A stretch of DNA of 64,000 nt, from contig OZ242379.1 of the NCBI GenBank assembly GCA_965209225.1, positions 1,666,661 through 1,730,660 on the forward strand. Direction: 5' to 3'. Shown here piece by piece: positions 10,363 through 52,774 of the stretch. The translations under genes were made by a program, and so were the position numbers. Under the pieces are notes generated by a model, which was not told the DNA's origin, did not search any database, and saw nothing but the letters and a program-made list of their open reading frames with translations. Positions within the stretch are counted from its first letter, which is position 1. Each line of letters starts with the position of its first letter. This DNA comes from Thermodesulfobacteriota bacterium. Its GTDB lineage: Bacteria > Desulfobacterota_D > UBA1144 > Nemesobacterales > Nemesobacteraceae.

Positions 10363-12879
10363 ATGAAGGTGTTAGAAAGTCCCCGATACGTTCTCTTCTC
10401 AGAGGATATTGCTGTGTTTGCTTTGGGGTGCGTTCTGCTCTGCCTTGCCTTGGCGCTTTTCGCTCTCCCGGGAAACGCGCGGGCGGTGACATGTGCTTCA
10501 AACAGGTTCTCCAACCCGCCTACGGACAGGCAGGTGCTGATAGACTTTTACTGCGAGACGGGCGGTGCCGACTGGGAAAGGAATACCAGATGGCTGAACG
10601 ACAACGCAGAAATTAGAAATTGGCGTGGGGTCAGAACTAATACTGATGGCCGTGTCACAGAACTGAGACTATCTGCTAACAACTTGACCGGGAGAATACC
10701 GGTCCAGATGGGATACCTGTCCAGTTTGACAAATCTTGCTCTCCACGTTAATAAGCTGAGCGGAGGTATTCCGACTCAACTTGGAAACCTGACAAACCTT
10801 ACGTCGCTGGGTCTCTCACGAAACCAGCTGAGCGGAGGTATTCCGACTCAACTTGGGAACCTGACAAACCTTACGTCGCTGGGTCTCTTCGATAATAAGC
10901 TGAGCGGAGGTATTCCGACTGAACTTGGGAACCTGACAAACCTTACGTCGCTGGGTCTCTCACGAAACCAGCTGAGCGGAGGTATTCCGACTGAACTTGA
11001 GAACCTGACAAACCTTACGCAGCTGTTTCTCAACGATAATAAGCTGAGCGGAGGTATTCCGACTGAACTTGGGAACCTGACAAACCTTGCGGAGCTGACG
11101 CTCCACCATAATAAGCTGAGCGGAGAGATTCCGGCCGAACTTGGGAACCTGACAAACCTTATTACGTCGCTGGGTCTCTCACGAAACCAGCTGAGCGGAG
11201 GTATTCCGACTGAACTTGGGAACCTGACAAACCTTACGCAGCTGGCGCTCCACTATAATAAGCTGAGCGGAGAGATTCCGACTGAACTTGGGAACCTGAC
11301 AAACCTTCGGTGGAAGCTGGAGCTCAACGATAATATGCTGAGCGGAGAGATTCCGGCCGAACTTGGGAACCTGACAAACCTTTATCGGCTGTATCTCAAC
11401 AGTAATAAGCTGAGCGGAAGTATTCCGACTGAACTTGGGAACCTGACAAATTTTCTGGAGCTGTATTTATGGGGAAACCGACTAACCGGGGAGATTCCGA
11501 CCGAACTTGGGAACCTGGCAAACCTGGAGCAGCTGTATCTCAACAGTAATAAGCTGAGCGGAGGTATTCCTACTGAACTGGGGAACCTGACAAACCTTCG
11601 GGAGCTGTATTTATGGGGAAACCAGTTAACCGGGGAAATTCCTACTGAACTGGGGAACCTGACAAACCTTCGGGAGCTGTATTTATGGGGAAACCAGTTA
11701 ACCGGGGAAATTCCGACCGAAATTGGGAACCTGACAAACCTAGAGCAGCTGTATCTCAACGGTAATAAGCTGAGCGGAAGTATTCCTGCCGAGCTGGGGA
11801 ACCTGACAAACCTAGAGCAGCTGTATCTCAACGGTAATAAGCTGAGCGGAAGTATTCCTGCCGAGCTGGGGAACCTGACAAACCTAGAGCAGCTGTATCT
11901 CAACGGTAATAAGCTGAGCGGAAGTATTCCTGCCGAGCTGGGGAACCTGACAAACCTAGAGCAGCTGTATCTCAACGGTAATAAGCTGAGCGGAAGTATT
12001 CCTGCCGAGCTGGGGAACATGACAGCCTTGGAGCGTTTATATCTCCACGGAAATAATCTGGGAAACAGTAGGAGCAGGGTCATACCTGAAGAATTAGTCG
12101 ACTTAACCAATCTTGTTGAACTTTCGCTCTGGTCAAATCCGCAGCTTTTGGTTCAAACCCTGAGGTCGGAACTTATTCGCCGGCATGACAGAGCGGCGCT
12201 GAGATTTATCTATGAAAACAACAATGGGGAGCAGTGGACAAACAATGACAACTGGTTTTCTTCTGAACCGTTGAGGGAATGGCACGGGGTAACCCTCAAT
12301 GACGCCAGGCAGGTTACGGGACTTGATCTTCAGAACAACAATCTGAGAGGGCCTCTTGACGATGCGTTTTCAGGTCTGCTGGTTCTTCGGACTTTGAATC
12401 TTTCAGGGAACTGCGGCCTCACGGGGGAGTTGCCTTTCGGGTTGATAGATAATTACGTGAATGAACTGAACATTAGTTCCACGGGGGTGGGAGTGCCGGA
12501 CAATGAAGATTTTAAGACTTGGCTTGCCGGTATTAATTTCAGGAGTTCCCGCTGTTCTGCTCCGACAACCCCGACGACTCCGACAACCCCGACGACTCCG
12601 ACAACCCCGACGACTCCGACAACCCCGACGACTCCGACAACCCCGACGACTCCGACAACCCCGACGACTCCGACAACCCCGACGACTCCGACAACTCCCG
12701 TTGAGGTTTCCGAGCCTCCGGTTGCGGAGGGAGAAAGCAGCGGGGGATGTTCGGTTGTTTCCGGAGAGGCAGGGGGAAGCGGGTCGTTTAACGTTGTGTT
12801 TAATCTGTTTTTGATCATCTTCGGTCTTGTGGGTGTTTCCCGGAGAAGACGGCGGATATGTGTTCGCAGGGCCGGATAG
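10363..12879 (+). CDS. Exported leucine-rich repeat protein (plant-specific-type 24-aa LRRs) with PTT linker and C-terminal Cys/TM/basic anchor
   Basis: Signal peptide, LRRNT-like cap, about 19-20 repeats of LSGxIPxELGNLTNLxxLxLxxN, second cap, (PTT)15, GGC...FNLFLII...RRRRR. Confidence 0.92.
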   Translation: MKVLESPRYVLFSEDIAVFALGCVLLCLALALFALPGNARAVTCASNRFSNPPTDRQVLIDFYCETGGADWERNTRWLNDNAEIRNWRGVRTNTDGRVTELRLSANNLTGRIPVQMGYLSSLTNLALHVNKLSGGIPTQLGNLTNLTSLGLSRNQLSGGIPTQLGNLTNLTSLGLFDNKLSGGIPTELGNLTNLTSLGLSRNQLSGGIPTELENLTNLTQLFLNDNKLSGGIPTELGNLTNLAELTLHHNKLSGEIPAELGNLTNLITSLGLSRNQLSGGIPTELGNLTNLTQLALHYNKLSGEIPTELGNLTNLRWKLELNDNMLSGEIPAELGNLTNLYRLYLNSNKLSGSIPTELGNLTNFLELYLWGNRLTGEIPTELGNLANLEQLYLNSNKLSGGIPTELGNLTNLRELYLWGNQLTGEIPTELGNLTNLRELYLWGNQLTGEIPTEIGNLTNLEQLYLNGNKLSGSIPAELGNLTNLEQLYLNGNKLSGSIPAELGNLTNLEQLYLNGNKLSGSIPAELGNLTNLEQLYLNGNKLSGSIPAELGNMTALERLYLHGNNLGNSRSRVIPEELVDLTNLVELSLWSNPQLLVQTLRSELIRRHDRAALRFIYENNNGEQWTNNDNWFSSEPLREWHGVTLNDARQVTGLDLQNNNLRGPLDDAFSGLLVLRTLNLSGNCGLTGELPFGLIDNYVNELNISSTGVGVPDNEDFKTWLAGINFRSSRCSAPTTPTTPTTPTTPTTPTTPTTPTTPTTPTTPTTPTTPTTPTTPTTPVEVSEPPVAEGESSGGCSVVSGEAGGSGSFNVVFNLFLIIFGLVGVSRRRRRICVRRAG
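10684..12060 (+). repeat. 72-bp tandem LRR-coding repeats (two units of 75 bp)
   Basis: Recurrent ctgagcggagg/aagtattcc...gaacttgggaacctgacaaacct units; the last several units are identical. Confidence 0.93.
12562..12696 (+). repeat. 18-bp VNTR (ccgacaaccccgacgact, about 7.5 units) encoding 15 PTT triplets
   Basis: Directly visible tandem repeat. Confidence 0.95.
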
Positions 12880-12960
12880 CCGGGTTTGTGTTCAGCGGAG
12901 ATATTCCATGCTGCCGCAGAGAATCAGGACTCACGGATTTTTTCGATTCTGAAGGTCAAG

Positions 12961-13330
12961 ACTGCTTCGCCGATTTCCTTCCCGGTTCTTTTAAGCGTCC
13001 TGTCAACTCCGCCCTTCATAAAGCCGCTCACATAAGAGCCTTCCTCGGGGTTCTGCTTCGGCGGTTCCGATTTTCGCCTTTCTGCTTGCCGTTGCTGGTT
13101 TCGTTCTCCACGGCGGTCCAGGGCGCATGAGTTTCGAACATGGTGTCGCAAGCGGCGGTCGGTCCTCTGGATTACGGGGTTATTCTATGGATGAGAGTCA
13201 CTCTGCGGGAATCCCAGAGAAAATCAGGGTAAGGGTCGAAGTCGCTTCGGATGAGAAATTCGGAAGCCTTGTCTACAGTTCTGTTGAGAGCGCGACGGCC
13301 AAGAGAGATTACACCCTCAAGATTGATGTT
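12961..13330. pseudogene. Decayed chimeric duplicate of hisIE (33960-34058) joined to the phoD 5' region (34673-about 34946)
   Basis: Direct alignment to the locus about 21 kb downstream; junction at the shared hexamer TGCTTC; substitutions and frameshifts. Confidence 0.88.
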
Positions 13331-13339
13331 AACCCAAGT

Positions 13340-13511
13340 TCGTCAGTTTCGGATAGACACGCAGGCCACGCACCTTGATAGGGTAATCCGCGGGCACTGC
13401 AACTACTGCGGGGTAACGGGGAACGGCAAGAGGCTCAGCCAATTCCGGTACCAGACCACGAGGGCATGGCGGAAGTGGTTATCACGCCGCAGCAGCAAGG
13501 GGGGGGGGTGA
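13340..13511 (+). pseudogene. Group II intron reverse transcriptase/maturase thumb (domain X) fragment
   Basis: HLDRVIRGHCNYCGVTGNGKRLSQFRYQTTRAWRKWLSRRS matches the RGHxNYYGxxGN...WRKWLSRRS maturase pattern; ends in a G10 run. Confidence 0.75.
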
Positions 13512-13576
13512 AAACCTGTCAAACGGGGATATTTTCCACCTCAGGTGCCAAGGCCGAATCCAAATGACCCCACGTC

Positions 13577-14851
13577 TCATCCTTCAATGAGAAGGGTCTC
13601 TGGATCTTCAATCAGTTCCTTTACCTTTACGAGAAACTGCACTGCTTCCTTCCCATCGACTATCCTGTGGTCGTAGCTGAGTGCCGTGTACATCATCGGT
13701 TTTATCACTATGTCTCCGTTAACCGCCACGGGCCTTTCCTCTATCTTGTGAAGTCCAAGTATCGCGACTTGGGGCGGATTCAGTATCGGGGTGCTCATCA
13801 GTGAACCGTATACCCCTCCGTTTGTTATGGTGAAAGTCCCGCCGAAGATTTCATCGAGCGAAAGCGTGTTTGTGTTTGCCTTCTCGGCAAGTTCCCTGAC
13901 TTCTTTTTCTATCTGCGCGAAGGTTTTTCTGTCAGCCTCCCTTATGACGGGAACGACAAGTCCTCCCTCGGCCCCTACCGCTATTCCGATATCGTAGTAA
14001 TCCTTATAGACTATTTCATCTTCCTGGATCTCGGCATTTATCTCAGGAAACAGCCTGAGCGCTCCAATAGAGGCTTTTATGAAAAAGGAGGAAAAACCGA
14101 GACTCACTCCGTATTTTTCCTGGAAGGCCTCTTTTTTTCTCGATCGAAGCTCCATTACATTAGACATGTCGATTTCATTAAAAGTGGAGAGTATGGCGGC
14201 TGACTGCTGAGCTTCCACGAGACGTCTTGCTATGGTCCTGCGACGTCTCGACATTTTCATTCTCCTCTCCCTGTTGGTGGTAAGCTGCGAGAGGGACGGG
14301 AAGATATCCGGTGACACCGGGGTTTCGGAAACTTCCTCTTCCCGGGGAGCTTCCTGCGGGATTTCTTTTCTGGTTTCCTGTGACTCAAGATGCTTTTCCA
14401 CATCATCTTTTGTGATTCTGTTTCCCTCGGGTACGACCTGGGAGAGGTCGACTTCGTTCTGCTCGGCGATATTTCTCGCGACGGGAGTCACTCTCGTCTC
14501 GGGTTCTTCTTCAGGCTGCTTTTTTGGGGGAGTTTCTTCGGCTGGCGGTTGGGGTGAGGGCTTGGGTTTTTTAGGAGATTCTTCCGCATCGCTTCTTTTA
14601 TCCCCTTTGCTTGCTGACACCTCGATGGTTCCCAGGATGTCTCCTACTTCAACATCTTCATCGGCTTTTTTCGCTATTGACGCCAAGATTCCCGTTGCTT
14701 CGGCGGCGACTTCGAAGTTAGCTTTCTCGGTTTCAAGCTCAACAACGGTTTCCCCGAGTCTTACCGTGTCTCCCTGTTGCTTGGTCCACTTGATTATTGT
14801 TGCTTCTATTACGGAATCCCCCAAGTGGGGAACGACGATGTTCTTGGCCAT
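13577..14851 (-). CDS. sucB: 2-oxoglutarate dehydrogenase E2, dihydrolipoamide succinyltransferase
   Basis: Lipoyl domain ETEKAN, E3-binding domain, YDHRIVDG. Confidence 0.95.
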
Positions 14852-14876
14852 TTTCTCCCTCGCTTGTGCCTTTTTT

Positions 14877-17735
14877 TCAGATATCTCTGTGCCAGGTTAT
14901 TCCGCTTTCCTCATTTCCTTCCACTACTTTATCTATGCTGAACGCCTGCTTTATAAGCAACTCCTGATTGTATTTGTGCATGGAGGAAAGTCCTTCGGAG
15001 GGGCTTGAGTAGCGCTTTCTTCCTATATAGCTGAGTGGAAACCGTTTCTTGATGATTTTTCTTCTAAAAAAAGGCAGCATGTATTTCCAGGCTCCCGCGT
15101 TCTGGGGTTCTTCCTGTACCCAGACCACTTCTTCAAGTTTACCATACCTCTCCAAAACAGCGCTTACCTCTTCCTTGGGCCTCGGGTAGAGCTGTTCGAT
15201 TCTGGCTATCGCAACATCAGGCGATTTGGCTCTGAGTTCACTTGAGATGAGGTCAACGTATACCTTGCCGCTGCAGAATATGAGCCTTCTTGCTTTTTTC
15301 GCCTGTCTGGCACTCATCGGGTCGTCAATTACGGGAAGCCATTTCCCCTCGGACAAGTCCTTAAGGGACGAGTTTACCATCGGGCTTCGTAGAAGTCCCT
15401 TGGGCGTCATGACAACCAGGGGAAGAGGATCTTTTTCAAGCAGCAGGGCCTGGCGGCGAAGCACGTGGAAGAACTGCGACGAAGTGGTGCAGTTCACTAT
15501 CCTTATATTGTATTCTGCAGCCGACATGAGAAACCTTTCAAGCCTCCCGCTCGAGTGATCAGGGCCCTGTCCTTCATAAGCGTGAGGGAGCAGGAGAACC
15601 AGGGAAGGGGTCTGCCCCCATTTCGCCCTCGCGGATACAAGATATTCGTCCACTATGGTCTGAGCTCCGTTTATGAAATCTCCGTACTGGGCTTCCCATA
15701 TCACAAGGCAGTTTGTTTTCTCGATACAGTATCCGTACTCAAAACCCAGGCAGGCGTTTTCGCTGAGCGGGCTGTTCTTTATCTCGAATGCGGCTTTCGC
15801 CTGCGGGATCTTCTGCAACGGAATATGAACTGCGCCGTTCTCAGAGTCGTGGAGCACCGCGTGGCGGTGGCTGAAAGTACCCCTCTCGCAATCCTGTCCG
15901 GTTATCCTGATGGGAATGCCTTGTGCGATTATGGAGGCGTAGGCCAGTTCTTCCGCCATGGCCCAGTCAATTGTCTTTTCTTTCGGGTCGTCGAGAATGT
16001 TTTTTCTCCTGTCGCGTATTCTGGCGATTTTCGAATTTACAGTGAATCCTTCGGGAACCGAGAGAAGGGAGTCGTTTAGTCCGCGCAGGGTTTCGTCGGG
16101 AACCTTGGTAACCGTTCTTTTCGCTATCCCGCGTTCCGGGGAGGGCGCCGTTGATTCCTCGGGGGAGTCGTCAGGGGAAATCGATTCGAATTCCTCGGCA
16201 ATCTTCTTGATATACTCTCCTTGCAGCTGTTCTACCTGCTTTTCCGAGACGGTGCCTTTTTCTATCAGTTTCTTTGCCCAGATGTCCATCACCCGGGGAT
16301 GACTGTCTATCTTTTTGTATATCATGGGCTGGGTGAATCCCGGTTCGTCCGCCTCGTTGTGTCCGTACCTTCTGTAGCCGACAAGGTCTATGAGGAAATG
16401 TTTTTCGAATTTTGATGTGTAGCCGAAGGCCAGGCGTATTGACTCTATGCAGGCGACCGGGTCATCCGCGTTTACGTGCACAATCGGTATTTCGAATCCC
16501 TTCGCGAGATCGCTTGCATAAAGCGTGCTTCTGCTGTCGGAGGGGAGCGTTGTGTAGCCCATCTGGTTGTTGGTGATTATGTGTATGGTTCCGCCGGCGC
16601 GGTAGCCCGGAAGGGATGAGAGATTGAGCGTTTCCGCGTTTATCCCCTGTCCCATGAATGCCGAATCCCCATGGATCTGCACCGGGATTACCGCTGAGGG
16701 GTCGAATTGCGGAGAACCCGGCATATCGTCGCTTATCCCGCACGCCCTCGACATTCCCTGCACTACCGGATTTACCGATTCCAGGTGGCTGGGATTGGGA
16801 ACCATGGTGATCCTCATGTTGCGATCAAGCATGTCTCCAGTCGGGATATCGCGTTTTACGGCCTCGTGGTACTTTACGTCCCCGGTCCATCCCATGTCGT
16901 CTGCGAAATCCCTTACCAGGACAGGGTCCTTGAACTTAAGCAGCGTGTACTTGTAGTTTTTCTCCATCACGTGGTGCATCACGTTCAGCCTTCCGCGATG
17001 GGCCATTCCGAGAATTATCTGGTGTATGTCGGCTTTGATGGCGAGGAGTATCAGTTCATTCAGCATAGGCACCAGCATGTCGACGCCTTCTATTGAGAAC
17101 CTGAATTTCCCGGGGAAGATCCTGTGGAGGAAGTTTTCGAATATTTCCACTCTGGTGAGGGTATCGAGAAGCTCTACTTCGTTGACGGGATTTAGGGGAG
17201 GGCGGTAAACGCCCGACTCTATGGCCCCTCTCATCCACCTTCTCTCTTCAGCTTCGTAGATGTGGTCATAGTTATATCCCGTGGTGGAAGAGTAGATTTT
17301 TCTCAGCTTTCTGATTCCGTCAAGTGCGTCAAGTGAGTTCTGCGAAAGAGGCCATCCTACAAGGGTTGGGGGAAAGTCTCTTAGTTCCTCCTCGTCAAGT
17401 CCGAAGGTTTCGGCGTGCAAGGTGAGGTCTCCGTGAACGGGACCCCCGAGGGGATCTATTCTGCTTGCCAGATGACCGTGCCTCCTGATTGCCTGAGACA
17501 TATTGGCGATCGCAACGGCCTTGTTTACGTCCCTTACGGATGACTGTTTGAAGCCGTTCTTCTCGATCTCGGGTTCTATCTCGACCCTGAGAGACGAGTA
17601 TTTGCTGTCGGGTTTCCATCCCTTGAAGATGGTTTTCGTTGCGGGATCGACTGAAGAGGAATCTCTTACGTAACGTTCGTAGAGATCCATTACGTAACCT
17701 GAATTGAGCCCGTGAAAGTTTTTCCAGATGTCCAT
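14877..17735 (-). CDS. sucA: 2-oxoglutarate dehydrogenase E1
   Basis: [38 protein letters not shown]. Confidence 0.96.
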
Positions 17736-17960
17736 GCACCTTCCTCGGAATTACGTGATGTGAAGATTCAACTGACTGAAAACCTAACCCCCTATTCACA
17801 ACACAACTCCGCCTGCTCTAACGGTAACCGCATAGAATCATAGCATAAAAAAATATAAAGCAAACAAGGATTTTCGGGACCTTGTCAAAATGACGCAACG
17901 ATGATTCTGACCGGCGTACGAATTGGGTTCCCGCTTCAGGAGGATTTGCGCGGTTCCGTC

Positions 17961-18167
17961 TTATTTCTCTACCAATCCCAGAACATCAAAGATTTTAATG
18001 GCGCTTGACAACTGAATGTCTTGTTTCTGCTGCTCAAAACGCGAAACCGTCGGTTGACTTACTTCCGCTATGGTGGCCAGGCGACGCTGGGAAATTTTTC
18101 GTTCCTTGCGCCGCCTTATTGCCTCTTTGACAAGTAAGTTCCAATTGAGTCGAATGTTCCGTTCCAT
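17961..18167 (-). CDS. XRE-family HTH protein, putative HipB-like antitoxin
   Basis: ISQRRLATIAEVSQPTVSRFE HTH; overlaps the 3' end of hipA. Confidence 0.8.
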   Translation of the reverse strand: MERNIRLNWNLLVKEAIRRRKERKISQRRLATIAEVSQPTVSRFEQQKQDIQLSSAIKIFDVLGLVEK

Positions 18168-19327
18168 CTTTTCTCCATTTGCTGATGCAGTTTGTCTTTA
18201 ATGTACTGGTCGACATTTTTCGAGGCATCAACAGTGCTGTGGGCTTTATCGAGGCGGCTGGCGAAATCAGAAACCGCCAGCATAACCGCTTTGTCGGGTA
18301 GGCCGAATAGCTTGCCCAGCCGGACCATGTTCTTGGGGCCGATGCTGCCGATTCGCATGTTCTCTGCTCCCCCGATCCCCAGTGCCAGTGTCTGGTATTG
18401 CGGGTAGCAGGCGGCGGCAACGAGATCGTAGGAAGGCGTGAGGCGCAATCCGCTTTCTGTGTGCTCCATAGCGAAGTTTTTAAGATGCGCATCTGTATTT
18501 CCCGTGAGAATACAGGCCATTACCCGGCGAAACAGCGTATCGCACTCTGCCCGAAGGCATATGTCGTCGTTTTGGATGATGAAATCGGCCATGTGCTCAT
18601 AGCATGCTTCGTATTTATCCTCGGAGCGGTTACCGAGCATCTGGTTAAATTCCTCGAAGTGAATTTGCTTGCCGCCTTCAGTCCTGTCAAACCGTTTGAT
18701 AAGCAGAGACCTCTCCGCAACGCCCCGAAGCGGTGCCAGGGTCATCTCCACAACTGTGTCTTCCTTAAGAAGAGTTGCGCACGCCTGTGTAGTGACGTAC
18801 TCAAGTCCGAGAATATCGGGCAGCGTGGGGGACGAGAGCTTGGCTATATGAGTTGCCCGCTCACTGCGCCCTACGGGGCGGAACACACGGCCTTCCTTTA
18901 TTGCGCCCAGTTTTGGCTGGACCCCGGAAAGAGACGCCCTTGCTGAAAGCGCCGCAATGTTTTCCGGGTCGTTGTGGTCGATTTTAATGTCCCCGGCAGG
19001 TTCAGGATCAATGATCCTTACGGCACCAGCGAGGTCTGTGCCGAAGGCAAGCAGCAGAGAAAGACGGTCGTCCCTTCGCAGGCCGAGCGCACGTGCCTGC
19101 GCATTCTTGAGCCAGCCCTCAGCGCATAGATTGTCAAAGAAAGGGTGCAGACCGTATTCGCTTAAATGAGGCTCGGCCCGAAGTGGTAGAGTGTAGGAAA
19201 TAGCGGGCAAGGAGCTTTGCAGATAACTTTCGTCGTAGGTAAATACGCATCGGCCTCCAGCCTCCTGCGACAGAATGCCGGCAAAGGTATTTTTGTAATA
19301 TATGTTTCCCCAGAGGTTAATTGCCAT
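18116..19327 (-). CDS. hipA: HipA-family kinase toxin
   Basis: Couple_hipA N-terminal domain (FTYD...PFFDNL..EG), SLSGVQPKL, GNTDAHLKN, PSYDL. Confidence 0.9.
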   Translation of the reverse strand: MAINLWGNIYYKNTFAGILSQEAGGRCVFTYDESYLQSSLPAISYTLPLRAEPHLSEYGLHPFFDNLCAEGWLKNAQARALGLRRDDRLSLLLAFGTDLAGAVRIIDPEPAGDIKIDHNDPENIAALSARASLSGVQPKLGAIKEGRVFRPVGRSERATHIAKLSSPTLPDILGLEYVTTQACATLLKEDTVVEMTLAPLRGVAERSLLIKRFDRTEGGKQIHFEEFNQMLGNRSEDKYEACYEHMADFIIQNDDICLRAECDTLFRRVMACILTGNTDAHLKNFAMEHTESGLRLTPSYDLVAAACYPQYQTLALGIGGAENMRIGSIGPKNMVRLGKLFGLPDKAVMLAVSDFASRLDKAHSTVDASKNVDQYIKDKLHQQMEKRWNGTFDSIGTYLSKRQ

Positions 19328-19354
19328 TAATTCAATTCCGTGCAGTTTTTGTTG

Positions 19355-19421
19355 ATAGCATTAAATATTATAAAAGATGTTTTGTCAAATATGGGTGATA
19401 TAGCATTTAAATAATATAAAA
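19355..19421. promoter_or_regulatory. AT-rich direct repeats (atagcatt(t)aaata(t/a)tataaaa) in the hipA promoter region, putative operator
   Basis: Two imperfect copies flanking a minus-strand TTGACA. Confidence 0.4.
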
Positions 19422-19641
19422 TTAATCAAATAACCCCTTGAATGATTCGATAATCAACCATGTTTGGTCATTTCTTTAAATGAAAACATGTCGCTTTTCG
19501 TTTCTGCGGATTGCCGATCGGTTTTATTGGCAGGGACTAATATGCTGTCAATGCATTTTCTTGGGGAACCGGCGACCCGTCGCCTCGGTCAACGGGAGAA
19601 TCACGGTTTCAGCATATTCCGAATGTGCGGAAGACTGAAAG

Positions 19642-21438: not shown

Positions 21439-21691
21439 TAAAACGCGGTTCTCCCGGCAAAGAAGGATTGGCTAATCATACTAGATTGATTTACGTTGGC
21501 AAGATCACGGCGACGTTTCAAGAGGAGAGGAAGGCGTGATTTTTTGTCTTGTATTTCTAACTGATAAAGATGCGGGTGCGGATGTTTTCCACGCGTTTTT
21601 TTACTTGTTTTTTCCCTTTTTTTACATACCATTCTAATCTGGAAGGTCGGAAATTTTTCTCCGGCAATAAAATCCCGAGGAGTTTTGATAA

Positions 21692-42223: not shown

Positions 42224-42355
42224 CCTGTTGCCCATGTGGAATCTTTTTCCTAATTTTATAATCTGGGTGCGACCCTTTTCCCGAAGTTGTATTTAAATCC
42301 GACGGATATTCATGTAGAATTCCACGGAATCCAAAAACGGCGGTGACCAAGAATC

Positions 42356-42787
42356 ATGGCAGCGGTTAACAAGGCTATAATACTCGGCAATCTGGGAAGG
42401 GACCCCGAAGTAAGATATACGCCTGACGGAATGGCGATTACTACTTTTTCGGTTGCCACAACGGAAAAACGCAAGGACAAGGACGGAAATTCCCAGGAAC
42501 AGACCGAATGGCACAGGGTAGTGACGTTCGGCAGGACGGCGGAGGTATGCGGCGAGTACCTTTCCAAGGGAAGCTCGGTTTACGTGGAAGGTTCAATCAG
42601 GACCCGATCGTGGGATGACAGGGAAGGCAACAAAAGATACACGACCGAAATTGTCGGGAGGACGGTTCAGTTTCTCTCCCCCAGAGGGGAAGGCGGAAGG
42701 CAGAGCCGTTCCGAGGCGCCTCCGCCCGAGGATGATTTCGCCTACGAAGAGGGCACTGGTATGACGGACGACGACGTCCCGTTCTGA
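42356..42787 (+). CDS. ssb: Single-stranded DNA-binding protein
   Basis: [26 protein letters not shown]. Confidence 0.97.
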
Positions 42788-42817
42788 TTTTTCGGTTTTT
42801 ACTGACACGTTAAGTCT

Positions 42818-44203: not shown

Positions 44204-44204
44204 A

Positions 44205-46034
44205 ATGTGCGGAATAGTGGGATACGTGGGAAGTTCGGATAGAACCAAAAGCGTTCTCTGCGAAAGCTTGGGGAGATTAGAGTACAGGGGTTACGATTCT
44301 TCCGGGATATGCTTTGTCGAAAACGGCCGTTCCCGCGTCATAAGAAGCAAGGGAAAACTTGAAAATCTTTTCACCAAGCTAAAAGACTGCGAAGTGACCT
44401 CCTCACTCGGCATCGCTCACACCAGATGGGCCACCCACGGCGATCCCTCGGAGCGAAACGCCCACCCTCAGGTATCCGGTCCGATAAGCGTAGTGCATAA
44501 CGGAATAGTGGAGAACTACCCCGAGCTTAAGGAGGAACTTGTTGCTGCAGGTTATGAATTCTGCTCCGATACCGATACCGAAATCATCTGCCATCTGATC
44601 CGCGATTTTACGGAAAAAGGAGACTCTCTTCTTGAGTCAACGAGAAAAGCCTTTGAGAAAATAGAGGGCTCTTACGCTGTGGCGGTCATGTCGGATACAG
44701 AACCCGGGAAAATAATCGCCACCAGGCGTTTCTCTCCTCTTATAATAGCGCGCAACGGAAACGAATGTTTTCTGGCTTCAGACATCCCTGCGATTCTGCC
44801 CTACACGAGGGAATTTATTTTCCTTGAGGATAACGATTTCGTGGTTCTGGAAGAAAACGGCATTTCCGTAACCGACGCTGCCGGCAATGACGTTAGCAGA
44901 GACCCGACGGTTGTGGACTGGGACCCTTCGGTAACCGAGAAGTCAGGATATCGCCATTACATGCTGAAAGAAATTTTCGAACAGCCCGCGGCCATCTTCG
45001 ATACGCTTAGGGGAAAATTCACGGCGGACATGAGGAAAGTGGTTCTTGAGGACTTGAATCCCTCGCTTTTGCGAAACACGCAAAGAATCATTGTCGCGGC
45101 CTGCGGCACTTCCTACCACGCTGCTCTTATAGGGAAGTACATGATAGAGGAAGTCGCGGGAGTGAACACTCAGGTGGAGCTTGCATCGGAGTTTCGACAC
45201 CGAAATCCGGTCGTTGGCCCCGACAGCCTTTTTATCGCGGTTTCTCAGTCGGGCGAGACTGCGGACACCTCGGAAGCGCTTCTAAAGGCCAAGGAACTCG
45301 GTATGAACTCAATCGGAATAACGAACGTTGCGCTGAGCAAAATCTCAAGAGAGTCTGACTGCGTCATAGCTACAAAGGCGGGACCTGAGATCGGGGTTGC
45401 CTCCACAAAGTCTTTCACGACGCAGGTAATGGCGTTCTATCTTCTTTCCGTATATCTCGCGATTTCAAGGAAGACGGTTGATTCAAAAAGGGCTAGGCAG
45501 CTGATAGCCGATGCCATATCGGTTTCAAAACTCCAGCAGGAAGTTCTTGGGCTCGATGAACGTCTCAGGGATATTTCAAGAGATTTTTACGGTTACAGGA
45601 ATTTTATATATCTGGGCCGGGGAATTAATTACCCCGTGGCCATTGAGGGAGCGCTTAAGCTCAAAGAGGTTTCATACATCCACGCCGAAGGATATGCCGC
45701 CGGGGAGATGAAGCACGGTCCCATAGCTCTTATAGACAGCAACATGCCCGTTGTGTTTATAGCTCCGGAGGAAGATGTATATTACAAAAAGCTCCTTGGG
45801 AATTTTCAGGAGGTAAAGGCCAGGGGAGGGCGAATAATTTTCATAACGTCGGATAGAGAGCTTCGACTTCCCGACGAAAGGGACAGGAAGATAGTGATTC
45901 CGAAAAGCTCTTACCTTGTAAGCCCGATGGTATCGGTTATCCCCGTTCAGTTTATGGCTTATCACATAGCCAATATTCTGGGGACGGATGTTGATCAGCC
46001 GAGGAACTTGGCCAAGGTTGTCACGGTGGAATAG
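44205..46034 (+). CDS. glmS: Glutamine-fructose-6-phosphate aminotransferase
   Basis: MCGIVG, HTRWATHG, SQSGET, DQPRNLAKVVTVE. Confidence 0.97.
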   Translation: MCGIVGYVGSSDRTKSVLCESLGRLEYRGYDSSGICFVENGRSRVIRSKGKLENLFTKLKDCEVTSSLGIAHTRWATHGDPSERNAHPQVSGPISVVHNGIVENYPELKEELVAAGYEFCSDTDTEIICHLIRDFTEKGDSLLESTRKAFEKIEGSYAVAVMSDTEPGKIIATRRFSPLIIARNGNECFLASDIPAILPYTREFIFLEDNDFVVLEENGISVTDAAGNDVSRDPTVVDWDPSVTEKSGYRHYMLKEIFEQPAAIFDTLRGKFTADMRKVVLEDLNPSLLRNTQRIIVAACGTSYHAALIGKYMIEEVAGVNTQVELASEFRHRNPVVGPDSLFIAVSQSGETADTSEALLKAKELGMNSIGITNVALSKISRESDCVIATKAGPEIGVASTKSFTTQVMAFYLLSVYLAISRKTVDSKRARQLIADAISVSKLQQEVLGLDERLRDISRDFYGYRNFIYLGRGINYPVAIEGALKLKEVSYIHAEGYAAGEMKHGPIALIDSNMPVVFIAPEEDVYYKKLLGNFQEVKARGGRIIFITSDRELRLPDERDRKIVIPKSSYLVSPMVSVIPVQFMAYHIANILGTDVDQPRNLAKVVTVE

Positions 46035-46157
46035 CATGAAGTTCTGTACGGTTGATTTGCGTCGCAGTCGGAATTAACGGCGGTAATCAAAATGCGACGA
46101 TTGCGAAACAATCTCGGGAAGCATATAATATAGTATACCTAAGGAGGTAGCCTGTTC

Positions 46158-46349
46158 ATGGACGAAACCCTTGTTTTTGAAGTGCTCTGGGATAATGAAG
46201 CTGAGGTGTGGTATACATACGAAACCCCTGTTCAAGGGGCTATGGCTGAGGCTCCGACGCTTGACGAATTATATTCCAAGCTTTCAGTTATTGTTTCCGA
46301 AATACTACAGATGAACCAGCAATTCCCACTAAGTCCTAAAACCCCTTAA
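46158..46349 (+). CDS. DUF1902/HicB-like small protein
   Basis: WDNEAEVW...G..AEAPTLDEL; AAGGAGG RBS. Confidence 0.7.
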   Translation: MDETLVFEVLWDNEAEVWYTYETPVQGAMAEAPTLDELYSKLSVIVSEILQMNQQFPLSPKTP

Positions 46350-46354
46350 AATAA

Positions 46355-46955
46355 AGGGGTTCAGTCGTTTATAAGGATGTACGGATACCTCTCCCAGATA
46401 ATAAACTTCTCCGACATTGAGCTTGAAAAGTCGTTTGTCTTCTTCAGGTATCTCAACAGAAAACTTCCGAAACGCGAATCGCAGCAGTTCGATGCAAGCG
46501 ATATGGTAGATCTTGACTCGCTCAGAATACAGAAAACCCACGAGCACATCGGGGAGCTTGAGAAAACAGATGTATCGCTCACTCCTCCCGAGTTTGAAGG
46601 ATGTGCCGCGTCTGAGACGAAACGTGATCTGCTCTCGGAAATCATAGCCCAGCTTAACAGTGTTCATGGTGTTAACCTTACGGAGGAAGACAGACTTGAT
46701 CTCTCCCGTCTGAACAAGCGCTTAAACGAAGATGCGGAGATGGCAAAGTACATGAATGATGAAAACACCGAGGAGAACAAGAAGAATTTCTTCACAAAAC
46801 AGTTTGACAGCATGCTGATTGACTACGTGAACGAGAGGTTTGATTTCTACAAGAAGATAGAAGAAAACCAGTCGATCAAGGATCTGATATGCCAGATGCT
46901 TTACGCGGGGTATCAGCATAACAGACCATCTATGGTGCTGGGGGATTCAGAATGA
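46355..46955 (+). pseudogene. C-terminal fragment of type I restriction subunit R (HsdR)
   Basis: VQSFIRMYGYLSQII.F.D.ELEK...RKLP...LSEII..LN..HG; no helicase or nuclease part. Confidence 0.7.
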
Positions 46956-48232
46956 AAGTACTTGTCGTAGGAGGCGGGGGGAGGGAACACGCCCTCTGCT
47001 GGAAAATAGGCCAGAGTCCTCTGGTAAGGAGTGTTTACTGCGCTCCCGGAAACGCGGGAATAAGCCGTCACGCAGAGTGTTTTGATATCGGGGTGACGGA
47101 ATTCGATTCACTCGCACGGTTTGTTAAAGAACAGTCTGTGGACCTTACCGTGGTAGGCCCCGAGCAGCCTCTTTGCGAAGGGATAATCGACTTTTTCGAA
47201 AAAGAGGGTCTTCTCGTCTTCGGTCCTTCAAAAGCCGCCGCGGAGCTTGAAGGAAGCAAGATATTCTCAAAGAACCTGATGAAGAAATACGGGATTCCGA
47301 CCGGGGAATATTTCGTTTTCTCAGACATGGGACAGGCGCTTGCGAAGACAGCGGAAATGGAACCTCCGTTCGTGGTGAAGGCAGACGGCCTTGCCGCCGG
47401 CAAGGGGGTTATCATATGCCGCTCCTGCGAAGAGGGAGAGGACGCGGTTCGCTCAATGATGGAGCGCGCGGCGTTCGGTCACGCGGGAACTAAAGTGGTA
47501 ATAGAGGAATTTCTTACGGGCGAGGAAGCATCTTTTTTCGCCTTTACGGACGGAGAGAACATACTTCCGCTTGAGCCTTCCCAGGACCACAAGCCCATAT
47601 TTGACGGGGACAGGGGGCCGAACACGGGAGGAATGGGCGCGTATGCCCCTGCCCCCCTGGTAACAGATGAGTTAAGGCTAAGAATAATCGACGAGGTCAT
47701 GATTCCGACTGTGCGGGCGATGAAATCAGAAGGCAGGATCTACAGGGGGATTCTCTACGCCGGGCTGATGATAAAGGGCAGGAGTTTCAAGGTGCTTGAA
47801 TTTAACTGCCGCTTCGGTGACCCCGAAGCCCAGCCGCTTCTTATGAAAATGGATTCGGATATCGTTCCCGTTCTTTATTCGATAGCGCGGGGCGAAATGA
47901 GCACGGAACCCCTAGAGTGGAAGGATGGATTCTGCGTCTGCGTCGTAATGGCTTCAAGAGGTTATCCCGGAAGCTACGACAAGGGGGTTGAGCTCAAAAA
48001 AGCCAAAGACTTTGAGGATACCGAGGAAACGGTCGTTTTTCACGCGGGAACCGCTTTTTCCGAGGACAAGCTGGTTACAGGCGGAGGGAGGGTTCTCGGA
48101 GTCACTTCGCTTGGCTATACCATAGAGGAATCAATACAGAGCGCTTACAGGGTCGTTGATTTAATTTCCGAGGAAAGTCTTGTTTACAGAACTGATATAG
48201 GAAGAAAGGCGCTTTTGCGACTCAGAAACTGA
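46952..48232 (+). CDS. purD: Phosphoribosylamine-glycine ligase
   Basis: GGGGREHAL, KADGLAAGKGV, GPNTGGMG, EFNCRFGDPE. Confidence 0.97.
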   Translation: MKVLVVGGGGREHALCWKIGQSPLVRSVYCAPGNAGISRHAECFDIGVTEFDSLARFVKEQSVDLTVVGPEQPLCEGIIDFFEKEGLLVFGPSKAAAELEGSKIFSKNLMKKYGIPTGEYFVFSDMGQALAKTAEMEPPFVVKADGLAAGKGVIICRSCEEGEDAVRSMMERAAFGHAGTKVVIEEFLTGEEASFFAFTDGENILPLEPSQDHKPIFDGDRGPNTGGMGAYAPAPLVTDELRLRIIDEVMIPTVRAMKSEGRIYRGILYAGLMIKGRSFKVLEFNCRFGDPEAQPLLMKMDSDIVPVLYSIARGEMSTEPLEWKDGFCVCVVMASRGYPGSYDKGVELKKAKDFEDTEETVVFHAGTAFSEDKLVTGGGRVLGVTSLGYTIEESIQSAYRVVDLISEESLVYRTDIGRKALLRLRN

Positions 48233-48441
48233 GCGGTGTACGATGAGATCTGGCTAGGGTTGTTACGGTGGAACAGGTTGAGGCTGGAGGATTACGGTGT
48301 CTGAATAACCCAAAGCTCTCTAGCGTGCAATCTGGAAATGAACTTTGCGAGCAGGCTGCCAGACAGTTATTTAAAAGTGCGCCCGTTGTGTCGGCGCGCA
48401 GGGTGGTTTCAGTCTGTTGAGTTACTTTAAGGAGGTATGAC

Positions 48442-49755
48442 ATGAAGAATCTGGATAGTGATATTACGGTGGTATTGGTTCTGATGTTAGTTTTTATCTT
48501 GGGCGTTGTTTTTTTCCCTGCTGTTTCTGCGTATGCCGATGCTGGCGGGTCCCACGGGATTCCTCATACAACGGCAGGCGATGCCGCTTCCGCTGCTGAT
48601 GAGACTACAATGAGGAATTTCGTTCTGCATGCGAAACACCACTTGGATACTGCGGCAGAAGAAGGCGCGGTAGAGACTTCGGTGCTCCTGAGGCAGATGA
48701 GGGACAAAGAAGGGGACTGGATAGACGGGTCTGTCTATCTTATTGTAGCGCGGCAAAACGGCTACATCTGGAATCATGGAAAGGATACAAGATCCTTTCA
48801 TGGAACTTCGCTGGGCCGCCATCCAGTTGCGGAGAAACTGCTTGGCGAACTTCGCGGAGGAAGCGTTGATGCAGATCCGGTCTGCGAAGAATACACTCAT
48901 CCGGATGGATCTTTAAAATGGAGTTGCGCTGCTTTGATTAAACCCTTGCTTGCCGGGGGAGAGCCGAATCTCCTAATCGGGGGTCTTGACCACGATGATC
49001 AGTATGTAGACAGACGTGAGTGTCCGGAAGTCAACCCGGAAGTAACGGCCGAGGATGTAATCGCAGGCCAGTATGTAAGCGAAGAGCGCGGCAAGGAAGT
49101 CCAGAAGGATTTTGTAAAGGCGGCGATTCAAAGGGTTGAAAATTTGCTGACTCAGGATCCACCTACACAACAATCACAACAACTCTCACCGCTGCAATAT
49201 GTAATTAACCAGATGGCATGTTTCGGCGAAGGTCCATGGAAGTCAGGACCTATATACGTCTTTGTCATGGTCAAATATTCTGAAGGGGTTCCCACGGTGG
49301 TTTTTAACGGGAACAATCCGGAGTTAACCGGTAGTCCTTTTGAGAATGTTTTTGACGAAGATGGAGTTGACATCGGGCGGGAAATCCTTGAAGTTGCGGG
49401 AGAAGACGGAGAAGGCGGCTTTGTTAAATACAAGTGGGATAACCCTCTTATAGCGGACGACGATGTTCAGGAACCTGGCAGGTCTCCCGGCAGGTCGCCG
49501 AAAATAAGTTATGTTGAAGCGGTGGATTTCACTCAGCTTCCAGGGCTTCTGATCTTCGGTTCCGGTATTTACGGCACTCTTGAGCAAGACAGTGTGAGTA
49601 GTGACGACGGATGTGCGATTGCCGGGTCTGGCGACAACTCTCAAAGAGCTGTATTCAATCTGCTTTTGATAATGTTTTCAATGTGTTGTCTGTCTATCTT
49701 TTGGAAAGGCAGATCGAAAAAACAGAGCAAATTTAATGACGAGGTTTCCGGGTAA
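48442..49755 (+). CDS. Exported tandem Cache-like domain protein with C-terminal Cys/TM/basic anchor
   Basis: Signal peptide; W.DGSVYLIV...G...NH and WKSGPIYVFV...NPEL.G...DEDG...GGFVKYKWDNP...KISYV...FGSGIY; tail DGCAI...FNLLL-TM-KGRSKK. Confidence 0.7.
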   Translation: MKNLDSDITVVLVLMLVFILGVVFFPAVSAYADAGGSHGIPHTTAGDAASAADETTMRNFVLHAKHHLDTAAEEGAVETSVLLRQMRDKEGDWIDGSVYLIVARQNGYIWNHGKDTRSFHGTSLGRHPVAEKLLGELRGGSVDADPVCEEYTHPDGSLKWSCAALIKPLLAGGEPNLLIGGLDHDDQYVDRRECPEVNPEVTAEDVIAGQYVSEERGKEVQKDFVKAAIQRVENLLTQDPPTQQSQQLSPLQYVINQMACFGEGPWKSGPIYVFVMVKYSEGVPTVVFNGNNPELTGSPFENVFDEDGVDIGREILEVAGEDGEGGFVKYKWDNPLIADDDVQEPGRSPGRSPKISYVEAVDFTQLPGLLIFGSGIYGTLEQDSVSSDDGCAIAGSGDNSQRAVFNLLLIMFSMCCLSIFWKGRSKKQSKFNDEVSG

Positions 49756-49837
49756 TATCGGAAGCCTGAGTTGATTTGCCTGTTTCGCGATCCCGAAATA
49801 CGATGCCGCAAACCGGAGAAGAAAATAAGAAGAAAAT

Positions 49838-51161
49838 CACTAGTGTCTTGATGTTAATCAAACAATTTCAGCTGGTTATGATACACTGAGTCTGGAGACA
49901 AATCCAGTCCTTTCGTAAGTAACTGATTTAACGGTATTTTTTCAAACAGGGTCAGGCTCAAAATCTGCAAAATTGTGTGGAAACTATGCTCAAGCCCAAG
50001 ACGTTTTTTTATGATCGCTATGAGAACATAGACTGAAACCGCTATCCATATCTGGGATTTCACGGCGTTCTCCGAGGTTCCATAGAAACTCTTGATTCTC
50101 AGGTGCTGCTTGATCCATTTGAAGAACAGTTCAACATGCCACCGATTCCGATACAGTTCACAAATGGTAATGGCAGGAAGCGAGAAGTTGTTTGTAATGA
50201 AAGTGAGGGTCTTATCACGTTCCTTATCCCGATACTTTACTGCTCGTAAGGAGTCGGGGAAATCTTTGATGCTCTTTGGGCCTGAGAGTTTAATTGTCCA
50301 GTCGTAGATAAGTCCTGTGGAACGGTCCACCTTGTGGGATTTAATCCGGCGGTACTTGGTGTTCTTTTTGGCTCGCAGAACAAAGAAGCACATTGACTGG
50401 TGGAGGCGATACAGGCGGGTGAAGTCAAGGTAGGCTCTGTCCATAACATAAAAGGCTCCGGGTTCGAGAATGATTCTGTCCAGAACATTGACATCGTGGA
50501 GTTTGCCATCGGAAATGTGAATGAAGGCAGGGATATAGCCTTGCAGATCAAGCAGTGTATGGAGTTTTACGGCTGCTTTGGTTCTTCGGAAATTAGCCCA
50601 CGAGAATAAATTGAGACAGAGGTCTATGGTCGAGTGCGTAGACAGTGTCGGGGATATCAAGCCCGTTGTCATCGTCACGATAGAGCAAGCGGGCTTTACG
50701 GATAAGGTGCTGTGCGAAATCCGCGTAGATTTGCCAGTTGCGATTTCTGTTTGCGACAGCAAGAGTACTGCGTGATATGCCGCTTGAGATTCCCATGTGA
50801 TAGAGTTTTTTTGCTTGGGGCGCGCAGGCAGGTTTCTACGTCGCGAAGGCTATCTCTGTAGGCAAGCTGTGCAAAGGCCATACAGCGATACTGCTCCGCG
50901 CAGAAGAACGATTTGACTTTGTGATTGCCGTTATAACGTTTTACGTATCTATGGAAAGTATCCCACGGAAGATGCTCCATGAGCTGAGAGAAAACCAGTT
51001 TCCCCGTGTACATGATATCTGCCTCCTGTTATGCTGATAGATACAGGTATCATGGGAAAGTGAACTTTAAACTTCAAGTCCGACGCATCCTTTAACGGCT
51101 GTTTTATCTTTGTAGTCAGGTGGTTACAACACACTCAGCTCAAAACGTCGGGACAGTAGTG
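49838..51161 (-). mobile_element. IS4-family insertion sequence
   Basis: 18-bp TIRs cactagtgtcttgatgtt / cactactgtcccgacgtt (14/18); 9-bp TSD gaagaaaat at 49829-49837 and 51162-51170. Confidence 0.92.
49854..51013 (-). pseudogene. IS4 transposase (DUF4372 + DDE), split by two frameshifts
   Basis: Homologous parts lie in three frames (50696-51013, 50593-50796, 49854-about 50630); YRNRWHVELFFKWIKQHL. Confidence 0.88.
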
Positions 51162-51358
51162 GAAGAAAATAAAGAGTTGCGGTCTTGGCCGCATTTATGA
51201 TATATCACTTTGTAAGGGTGGTGGCAGGAGATATTGGTTCTGTAAGTAGCCGTCAGGGGGACATTGTGACGTAGATCACCGGTAAAAACTATCCCCCTGC
51301 TCCGCCACCTCCCTGTTCAGAGTGACGAAAAAATAAAAAATACGGAGGTGTAATCAAA

Positions 51359-52774
51359 ATGCGTGAGACGGTTGCAAGTCTGTTTTTTGCCTTGTTGTTC
51401 GTTTTTTCTTTTAGTGTCGAGGCATCCGCTCATGAGGGCGATCACGATGAGAGCAGTGGTAAAACCGCGGAAGGTATTGCTGACCTCACAAGTGAAGAGG
51501 AATTGAAGGCTTTTCTTGCCCACATAGAAGAGTATTACAAGCAGAGAGAAGACGACACCCCCGGGACGCTGGCTGTGCTGCGCAGGGCACTCAGGGAGCA
51601 GGGAGAGTATGCAGATTTCGAGAGAGACATATACTTATTCAGCATAAACCAAAGGGGCACTGTAACGAATCACGCAAAATATCCCGAGTTTCTGGGTTAC
51701 AAATTCAATCGGGAATCGGATTCTGAGATAGCACAAGTAATAGAATATTTCATTAACCAGCCACATATTGTTCCTATTCCGGGCGGAGATTTTACCAGGA
51801 CCGGGATGAAGGTATGCAGAAGATACGGCGATGAGAAGCCGGGGTACGATAACCGGAAGCGGATAGCCTGCGCGGTGAATGCACTCATTTCCACAGGACC
51901 GGAAACGATCATAGTTGGTCTGCACCATGAGAGGGAGGAAAGAGTTTTTACGCCTCCTGACTGCTCCGGGTTTGAGCTCGGTACTCCTGCTGAGGATGTG
52001 TTTGAAGACCCGAGTGACGGCAAGCTTGAAGCCTATGTAAAAGGGGTTATAAGGGTAGCGCAGCAGCAGATGAGAGATGCGGGAAGAGAGTGGATCCGCG
52101 AGACCAAAGAAGAAGGAGGGCAAATCCCCAGAATCTTTGACGATCCAAATTCACCCGAGTCAATAAATGTTGCAAGAGCTATAACGCTGAGATTTTATGA
52201 CAAAATCTCCTGTTATGGAACCAGCGAACACCTTAAACACGGGAACATATATTCTTTTATAATGAATGCGGATCCTTCCTCCCCCACAGTGGTTATGAAC
52301 GGAAACGATCCTGATCTGAACGGAACCAATCTTGAAGCGAGGGACCCTTACCTGCCGGGAGAGCCGAAGATAGCAGATCTGTTTAGCGAAAAATTAGGGG
52401 CACCGGCCTCCGGAAATTCAGATTACGTCAACTATCACTGGGATGACCCCAGCAATTCGGACGATAACATTTCAGATTTTCTCGAAAGAGGAACAGTTCC
52501 GGGAACTTCATGCAAAAGAAGCTATATTGAGGTTGCGAATATGACCGCACTCCTCAGCGAGCTCCCTGAATTCAGAGGTGGCTCTGACTCCGAATGGCTC
52601 TGGATTTTCGGTTCAGGAACTTATCCAGGAGATGATGTATGTGAGGGTGAGGGTGATGATGACGGAGGATGTGCGATCATGGGGGCGGGACATACTTATA
52701 AGGGCGCATTGTTTAACCTGCTCCTTACGGTTTCTGTTCTTTTCTCGGTTGTTTTCCTGAAAAGGCGTGCGTAG
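51359..52774 (+). CDS. Exported tandem Cache-like domain protein with C-terminal Cys/TM/basic anchor (paralog of 48442)
   Basis: Signal peptide; IYLFSINQRGTVTNHAKYPE, IYSFIM...NGNDPDL.G, YHWDDP...KRSYIE...IFGSGTY; tail GGCAI...LFNLLL-TM-KRRA. Confidence 0.7.
   Translation: MRETVASLFFALLFVFSFSVEASAHEGDHDESSGKTAEGIADLTSEEELKAFLAHIEEYYKQREDDTPGTLAVLRRALREQGEYADFERDIYLFSINQRGTVTNHAKYPEFLGYKFNRESDSEIAQVIEYFINQPHIVPIPGGDFTRTGMKVCRRYGDEKPGYDNRKRIACAVNALISTGPETIIVGLHHEREERVFTPPDCSGFELGTPAEDVFEDPSDGKLEAYVKGVIRVAQQQMRDAGREWIRETKEEGGQIPRIFDDPNSPESINVARAITLRFYDKISCYGTSEHLKHGNIYSFIMNADPSSPTVVMNGNDPDLNGTNLEARDPYLPGEPKIADLFSEKLGAPASGNSDYVNYHWDDPSNSDDNISDFLERGTVPGTSCKRSYIEVANMTALLSELPEFRGGSDSEWLWIFGSGTYPGDDVCEGEGDDDGGCAIMGAGHTYKGALFNLLLTVSVLFSVVFLKRRA

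Follow-up and report, generated by a model that had tools for sequence, protein, structure and literature searches.

Sorting signals at the protein C-terminus that carry a Cys and are cut by Rce1-like proteases were described in 2023 (10.1101/2023.06.07.544157) and shown experimentally in 2025 in one organism (PMC11980579). According to the class descriptions of the 2023 preprint by Haft, from which we took the features of the four described Cys-type signals, all four pair with enzymes of the CPBP family while rhombosortase pairs with GlyGly-CTERM, and lineage-specific forms of signal and enzyme co-evolve and require custom models (10.1101/2023.06.07.544157). The experimental account has MrtX cleaving MYXO-CTERM in a Cys-dependent manner, and the model it outlines leads from Sec export through transmembrane anchoring, lipidation of the Cys and cleavage by MrtX to the type II secretion system (T2SS) (PMC11980579). 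Here we compare with these systems a stretch of 64,000 nucleotides (the window, G000:C1:1666661-1730660, G000 being the source genome) from a genome of Candidatus Dadabacteria that is a single contig of 2,276,242 bp and 98.7% complete. Three exported proteins encoded in the window end in the same Cys-containing tail, and we consider it probable that these tails are copies of a lineage-specific C-terminal sorting signal of Candidatus Dadabacteria that is processed by a single CPBP protease.

The first-pass annotation of the window had taken the tails for a candidate undescribed sorting system. This stands as far as the form goes, which is lineage-specific and uncurated, but the kind of system, a Cys-containing tripartite signal cut by an Rce1-like protease, is already known. 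What is new here is the spacer between the Cys and the transmembrane helix, the CaaX-like box after the Cys, the short protease on an uncurated branch and the occurrence in Dadabacteria. In the library searched, no paper names both Dadabacteria and CTERM.

A shared Cys tail on unrelated exported proteins

The open reading frames (ORFs) and tails of the three window proteins were confirmed as first annotated, all on the + strand, and all three proteins begin with signal-peptide-like N-termini. The first gene (window positions 10363..12879) encodes an exported protein of 838 residues with plant-type leucine-rich repeats, or LRRs (LRR_1 205 bits, LRR_8 151 bits), laid out as a signal peptide, about 20 LRRs, a Thr-Thr-Pro repeat linker and then the Cys tail. 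This tail (12742..12879, +, Cys codon 12748-12750) reads G-G-C-S-V-V, a 14-residue spacer, F-N-L-F-L opening the transmembrane helix, and a basic cluster. The second gene (48442..49755, +) encodes an exported Cache-like protein of 437 residues (dCache_2 33.3 bits, sCache_2 28.8 bits) with its tail at 49603..49755 (+, Cys codon 49612-49614), and the third (51359..52774, +) an exported tandem Cache/PAS-like protein of 471 residues, with its tail at 52664..52774 (+) and the Cys at residue 438 (codon 52670-52672). The model of the 471-residue protein (predicted local distance difference test, pLDDT, 78) best matched the sCache chemoreceptor sensor domains 4K08 and 5G4Y (probability 1.00, TMt ~0.6), and no signalling output domain was seen in this predicted model or the fold search.

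In all three ORFs an acidic/Gly-rich stretch leads to G-G-C, which is followed by a small and then an aliphatic residue; after a polar spacer, F-N-L-[LF]-L opens the transmembrane helix, and a basic cluster follows the helix. The tail ends first quoted are present in the sequences, but the LRR protein runs 7 and the 437-residue protein 10 residues further, so the basic cluster is not terminal. With the last 60 residues cut, no similarity between the LRR protein and the others was detected (the best BLASTP match spans 8 residues at E = 5.1), bearing out the earlier statement that it is otherwise unlike them, while the 437- and 471-residue proteins are paralogues (25% identity over 400 residues, E 1.5e-20).

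When the 9,393 ORFs of the genome were searched with a hidden Markov model (HMM) built from the three window tails alone, 12 additional ORFs scored at E <= 1e-6 and another 5 Cys tails at E < 0.1, and the iterated search converged on 27 carrier ORFs. The expectation that such an HMM would find more unrelated carriers was therefore borne out, with 24 additional ones on unrelated architectures. The resulting 27-row profile gave 30 matches in real ORFs, which follow by construction since the profile was built from the same ORFs, against 0 in reversed or shuffled ORFs. Twenty-seven of the 30 tail copies end no more than 25 residues from the end of the ORF; the other three are internal, each followed by a second signal peptide.

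Anchored on the Cys, which is present in 30/30 copies, the tail has Gly at -1 in 28 and at -2 in 20 copies, A/S/T at +1 and I/V/L/F at +2 in all 30, and Ala at +3 in 22. The consensus is G-G-C-[AST]-[IVLF]-[AVMSL], spacer, transmembrane helix and basic cluster, with G-C-[AST]-[IVLF] as its core. The F-N-L-(L/F)-L string first proposed as the defining signature did not hold, as just 15/30 copies carry, at +14 to +17 from the Cys, an Asn and then three hydrophobic residues. In the 27 C-terminal copies the spacer between Cys and helix measures 9-15 residues, 2-7 Lys or Arg residues follow the helix, and the Cys lies 32-55 residues from the protein end; every one of them has the tripartite layout of signature motif, transmembrane helix and basic cluster near the C-terminus.

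The carriers span at least five unrelated architectures: Cache-like, plant-type LRR, Calx-beta, Spondin_N/cadherin/fn3 and proteins with no Pfam match. By Pfam, about 15 are Cache-like, 4 are plant-type LRR proteins, 3 carry Calx-beta (two of them with LRRs), 2 carry Spondin_N (one with cadherin and fn3), and several have no match. A signal-peptide-like N-terminus was found in 21 of the 27. Surface display of this cargo (LRR, cadherin, fn3, Spondin and Calx-beta proteins and many Cache-like binding proteins) is a prediction that bears on interaction with hosts or particles, and current annotation overlooks both these surface proteins and their protease.

Three ORFs of 829-886 residues outside the window (G000:C1:279921-282581, 983101-985650 and 523404-525893, - strand) each join two complete pre-proteins in frame, without an intervening stop codon. 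They start with a signal peptide, a Cache-like domain and a Cys tail with its transmembrane helix and basic cluster, and the order then repeats with another signal-peptide-like segment, Cache-like domain and Cys tail; relatives have open frames of 857-914 residues with two tail matches about 1,300 bp apart. This self-consistent topology points to a polyprotein that signal peptidase and the tail protease would cut apart. A fused gene with an internal MYXO-CTERM, MXAN_5598, is reported in the experimental account (PMC11980579). Together with the spacer and the CaaX-like box, pre-proteins fused in frame through an internal tail could inform the mechanism.

The candidate protease and the described systems

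As first annotated, the window holds no candidate sortase. The sole CPBP/Rce1-like gene lies outside it, at G000:C1:1188208-1188810 on the - strand, and encodes 201 residues; with 68.4 bits on PF02517 (cut-off 22.4) it is the only PF02517 gene in the genome. Its top NCBIfam matches are all of the myxosortase family and all below cut-off: MrtP (80 bits, cut-off 250), Mrt_core (72.9/100), MrtS (62.9/130), MrtC (58.4/195), MrtX (46.9/180) and MrtJ (43/75). All 18 orthologues likewise match Mrt_core (NF040914, 100 bits) below the cut-off only (best E 1.3e-21), while the controls L098, L103 and L125 scored 131-146 bits. The motifs EExxxR, FxxxH and HxxxN are invariant in the 18 orthologues, and an L-T-F-F-P-S-L-V-M-G-Y block is invariant or nearly so. 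The AlphaFold model (pLDDT 91.5) has the fold of MmRce1 (4CAD, TMq 0.65-0.72) and SpdC (6U0O, TMq 0.65), both at probability 1.00, with the next match down at TM 0.25. By score, motifs and fold, the protein is a CPBP/Rce1-like glutamic intramembrane protease, and the dedicated protease postulated for a lineage-specific Cys-type CTERM has in it a candidate whose best family matches are myxosortases. No exosortase (PF09721) match was found in the genome at E <= 1.

Orthologues of the protease occur at 70-85% identity in metagenome-assembled genomes of Candidatus Dadabacteria / Thermodesulfobacteriota. The 32 distant relatives labelled with NCBIfam include MrtC (280 bits), MrtX (239 bits) and MrtJ (77.5 bits), and many pass Mrt_core. 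We placed these proteins in a tree of 47 rows, rooted at the midpoint without an outgroup, whose groups were partly set by hand from record names and identity; 12 of 79 loci gave no ORF by the motif filter, and 21 of the 67 extracted sequences were left out as short or start-truncated. The Dadabacteria proteins group together (87/94), with five Nitrospirota sequences, which score best on MrtS, as their sister group (98/94), and both groups together with two Aquificota sequences make up a clade of 25 rows (98/96). All 18 sequences that pass Mrt_core, including the MrtX, MrtC and MrtJ examples, fall on the opposite side of the tree from the Dadabacteria clade.

None of the 27 tails reached any curated NCBIfam CTERM cut-off, in agreement with the earlier view that they are not ordinary members of an existing model. 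The best tail scored 18.5 bits on MYXO-CTERM TIGR03901 (cut-off 20) and the best on JDVT-CTERM NF033191 15.7 bits (cut-off 27), and no tail matched Synerg-CTERM (TIGR04564), CGP-CTERM, GlyGly-CTERM or PEP-CTERM at E <= 10. With MYXO-CTERM and its enzymes MrtX, MrtC and MrtP (Myxococcota and Bradymonadales; TIGR03901, NF040593, NF040594, NF040674, NF040914), the Dadabacteria system shares the tripartite tail, in which an invariant Cys follows a Gly-rich stretch. In both, a genome has dozens of unrelated cargo proteins, one CPBP/Rce1-like protease and a T2SS, and an internal tail copy in a fused gene is known. Unlike MYXO-CTERM, the Dadabacteria tail has no GCGC, has a polar spacer of 9-15 residues and a CaaX-like C-[AST]-[IVLF]-[AVMSL] box, and has Asn at the start of the helix in half of the copies. 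Tails and protease both stay below the curated cut-offs, and the protease has just ~200 residues and sits on a different tree branch.

It could nevertheless be that the tails are ordinary divergent MYXO-CTERM and the protease an ordinary myxosortase, so that a lower cut-off or a lineage-specific model would suffice. TIGR03901 is indeed the best model for several tails (18.5, 16.0, 15.5, 14.5 and 11.1 bits), MrtP and Mrt_core are the best matches of the protease, and the preprint's remarks on co-evolving lineage-specific forms that need custom models would fit (10.1101/2023.06.07.544157). We regard this explanation as unlikely, given that 0/27 tails score 20 bits, that a second Cys within 3 residues, the GCGC feature, is found in 0/30 copies, and that a spacer is present in all 27 copies measured. 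The protease points the same way, since its 18 orthologues fall below the Mrt_core cut-off and the tree puts their clade with Nitrospirota and Aquificota, and the lineage lies outside both Myxococcota and Bradymonadales.

The remaining Cys-type classes differ more plainly in their motifs. JDVT-CTERM with MrtJ (NF033191, NF033192) also has a single invariant Cys and a cognate CPBP protease, but the near-invariant D-P before its Leu-rich transmembrane helix occurs in 0/30 copies here, the Dadabacteria protease scores 43 bits against the 75 required, and cargo and protease genes, described as adjoining in 16 of 17 JDVT cases, are here scattered and beside nadE, respectively. Synerg-CTERM with MrtS (TIGR04564, NF040589) is alike in its Ser/Gly-rich cluster ending in one invariant Cys, its CPBP protease and its T2SS link. 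As described, however, its signal has no spacer and an invariant Pro in the transmembrane helix, whereas spacer-less tails number 0/27 here and Pro lies inside the helix in 4/30 copies. The G-P that directly follows the Cys in CGP-CTERM (Thermococcales) was found in 0/30 copies, +1 always being A/S/T.

Among systems with other enzymes, GlyGly-CTERM with rhombosortase and PEP-CTERM with exosortase are alike in having a tripartite C-terminal signal and one enzyme for many cargo proteins, and GlyGly-CTERM also in its T2SS dependence. These signals, in contrast, need no Cys and their enzymes belong to other families; the source genome lacks an exosortase, and its one rhomboid fails the rhombosortase model TIGR03902 (16.2 bits, cut-off 84). 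CaaX processing by Rce1 in eukaryotes and archaea (MmRce1, PDB 4CAD) shares the protease fold and catalytic motifs, and the residues after the tail Cys fit C-a-a-X. Rce1 prefers an aliphatic a2 residue. The Dadabacteria box differs in lying ~30-50 residues from the C-terminus with a transmembrane helix after it and in facing the periplasm, and any lipid here would be something other than a prenyl group attached in the cytosol.

Co-occurrence across genomes and competing readings

The distribution of tails and protease was examined in 120 genomes of the phylum, of which 68 have both, 31 neither, 17 the protease only and 4 a tail only. Sixteen order-level genomes outside the genus divide into 10 with both, 5 with neither, 1 with one weak tail match only and 0 with the protease only. 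The four tail-only genomes are 59-90% complete. Five protease-only genomes were searched again at E <= 5, and 7 of the 12 matches translated (of 24) proved to be Cys tails of the same layout, 4 in G031, 2 in G048 and 1 in G049, while none was convincing in G041 and G072. This co-occurrence is consistent with the CPBP gene being the tail protease.

Two Nitrospirota genomes with a sister-clade protease, L170 (G120) and L179 (G122), each encode one fn3-type tail protein, with a Gly run, C-S-I, a spacer, a transmembrane helix with Pro and a basic cluster (2 of 10 translated matches, of 20). Judging from these sequences, the system may extend to Nitrospirota. The finding would carry the principle of a Cys tail cut by an Rce1-like protease to an uncultured phylum, and probably to Nitrospirota too, by way of a protease branch that the curated models miss.

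As a separate observation, G005, a genome of the same genus (single contig, 97% complete), has a protease of 56% identity, one tail match and one Lgt, and its genus-mates have 3-34 tail matches. The sorting system may be decaying in G005.

The tails might instead be uncleaved stop-transfer anchors of type I inner-membrane proteins, in which the Cys serves a disulfide, metal binding or lipidation alone. Membrane anchors are generically built as a transmembrane helix followed by a basic cluster, and the spacer holds the Cys away from the membrane core. We find this very unlikely, as it leaves unexplained an invariant G-C-[AST]-[IVLF] box at a fixed distance from the helix on unrelated proteins, its conservation in the phylum at large as well as in two Nitrospirota genomes, and its co-occurrence with a myxosortase-like protease.

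Several points nonetheless weigh against a cleaved sorting signal served by this CPBP protease. The protease stays below every curated myxosortase cut-off. Its gene adjoins no cargo gene and lies upstream of nadE. In the preprint's account, signals cut by deeply embedded proteases have no spacer (10.1101/2023.06.07.544157), and the spacer of 9-15 residues present here and absent in such signals makes the cleavage site uncertain. Six of the 27 carriers lack a signal-peptide-like N-terminus; these include short ORFs, and some are probably fragments or truncated ORFs. The co-occurrence profile is itself open to objection: a rhomboid orthologue is present in 79/85 protease-positive and 8/35 protease-negative genomes, and a GspD orthologue in 84/85 and 8/35. 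The profile owes most of its signal to two reduced lineages that are without all these genes, namely f7 with 6 genomes and f9 with 19. Few genomes discriminate: outside these lineages just one high-quality genome, G026 (99% complete), lacks protease and tails, and it lacks Lgt-B too but keeps GspD. The relatives in the profile are not independent.

The rhomboid had been used as a negative control for the profile and failed as one, its distribution resembling that of the protease. The phylogenetic profiling proposed with the first-pass annotation was less discriminating than hoped. Because rhomboid and GspD track similarly, the profile is not very specific, and the case for the CPBP gene therefore rests mainly on its homology to enzymes that process Cys tails. 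That the rhomboid itself processes the tails in the manner of a rhombosortase is hardly credible despite its nearly identical distribution, since it falls far short of the rhombosortase cut-off, has no orthologue found with this query in G025 and G033 (complete, 99%), which have the CPBP gene and tails, is present in G027, G035, G080 and G081, where tails and CPBP gene were not found, and the four described Cys-type signals, as the preprint lists them, pair with CPBP enzymes (10.1101/2023.06.07.544157).

In the source genome the protease gene is surrounded by HipA/HTH genes, an insertion sequence, and DUF4143 and AAA_21/DUF4276 genes. Among 21 related loci, 19 have nadE downstream of the protease gene on its own strand, directly adjacent in 14 and behind inserted genes in 5; of the remaining two loci one was too short to tell and one is without nadE. 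No functional partner of the protease emerged from these 21 loci. A complex prediction from the protease and tail alignments scored 0.02 against a mark of 0.32 and weighs neither way.

Proposed secretion and lipidation, and minor features of the window

By analogy with MYXO-CTERM and MrtX, we infer lipidation and cleavage of the tail, the site of the cut and the way to the surface, as follows. The pre-proteins would be exported by Sec via the signal peptides at their N-termini, and the transmembrane helix of the tail would retain them in the inner membrane and leave the basic cluster on the cytoplasmic side. Within the CaaX-like C-[AST]-[IVLF]-[AVMSL] box the invariant Cys would probably be lipidated, the single Rce1-like (CPBP) protease, a distant relative of the myxosortases, would remove spacer, helix and basic cluster, and the T2SS would carry the lipid-anchored protein to the cell surface. 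The source genome has a complete T2SS operon, with a PDZ GspC-like protein, GspD with an N0 domain, GspE, GspF, GspG, three pseudopilins and GspK, and in this it matches the published model of the MYXO-CTERM route.

The 2.28-Mb genome also encodes two full-length Lgt paralogues, one at G000:C1:1426076-1426789 and a second, Lgt-B, at G000:C1:249522-250214 that belongs to a separate clade, a type missing where protease and tails are missing. Aligned to E. coli Lgt (5AZB), both retain its conserved blocks. Lgt matches number at least two in 83/85 protease-positive genomes and at most one in 28/35 protease-negative ones. In an Lgt tree, in which G028_a sits on a very long branch, one clade (98) unites all 9 single-copy sequences with 13 of 14 A copies and excludes the 13 B copies. 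The neighbourhood of Lgt-B (SPFH, TrkA, TrkH, RibF, AroE) showed no link to sorting.

It is conceivable, though doubtful, that Lgt-B lipidates the Cys of the C-a-a-X-like box and that the Rce1-like protease then cuts after it, as a periplasmic counterpart of eukaryotic CaaX processing in which Lgt-B would serve as the dedicated lipid transferase. The spacer may in this arrangement let the lipidated Cys fold back to the membrane surface. Against a link between Lgt-B and the tails, the rhomboid and GspD profiles are nearly the same and specificity is low, of five sister-clade genomes with related proteases four have one Lgt and the fifth yielded none, and G005 keeps the protease with one Lgt. 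MrtX, moreover, functions in E. coli, which has a single Lgt, according to the experimental account (PMC11980579). The second Lgt is still a concrete candidate for the lipidation step of a myxosortase-type pathway, and if the proposal is true, the acyltransferase so far missing from the published myxosortase model would be Lgt-B.

Some minor features of the window remain to be described. Just N-terminal to the tail of the LRR protein, window positions 12560-12700 encode a perfect Thr-Thr-Pro repeat of about 17 units, written as an 18-nt DNA repeat. It probably forms an extended stalk, and possibly a glycosylated one. A G10 homopolymer (10292..10301, +) lies 62 nt 5' of the LRR start codon, and a second G/C homopolymer is found at 13499-13508. 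Both large LRR paralogues have a G10 before the start codon, at 62 and 67 nt. Genome-wide there are 44 G/C homopolymers of at least 8 bases, 6 of them within 400 bp of the start of a tail-carrier gene against ~0.4 expected from the share of the genome covered, and the G10 runs may permit slipped-strand switching of surface proteins.

A transposase in two ORFs of 302 and 105 residues (49854..51013, -) separates the two Cache-like cargo genes and does not belong to the sorting system. Transposases of 592 residues are encoded at window 53380-55158 (minus strand) and, near the protease gene, at G000:C1:1182899-1184674; the latter consists of an N-terminal DruA-like domain, DDE_Tnp_1_assoc and DDE_Tnp_1, domains that were read from this copy, the window copy being matched to it by length.

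In most of the Cache-like cargo, the predicted signal peptide ends in A-x-A followed by His and then Glu, Asp or Gly (for example at window 51359-51460 and 48442-48560). With A-x-A directly before the His, the mature protein would begin with His, often within a His-rich stretch. An N-terminal His can bind metal, as in the histidine brace.

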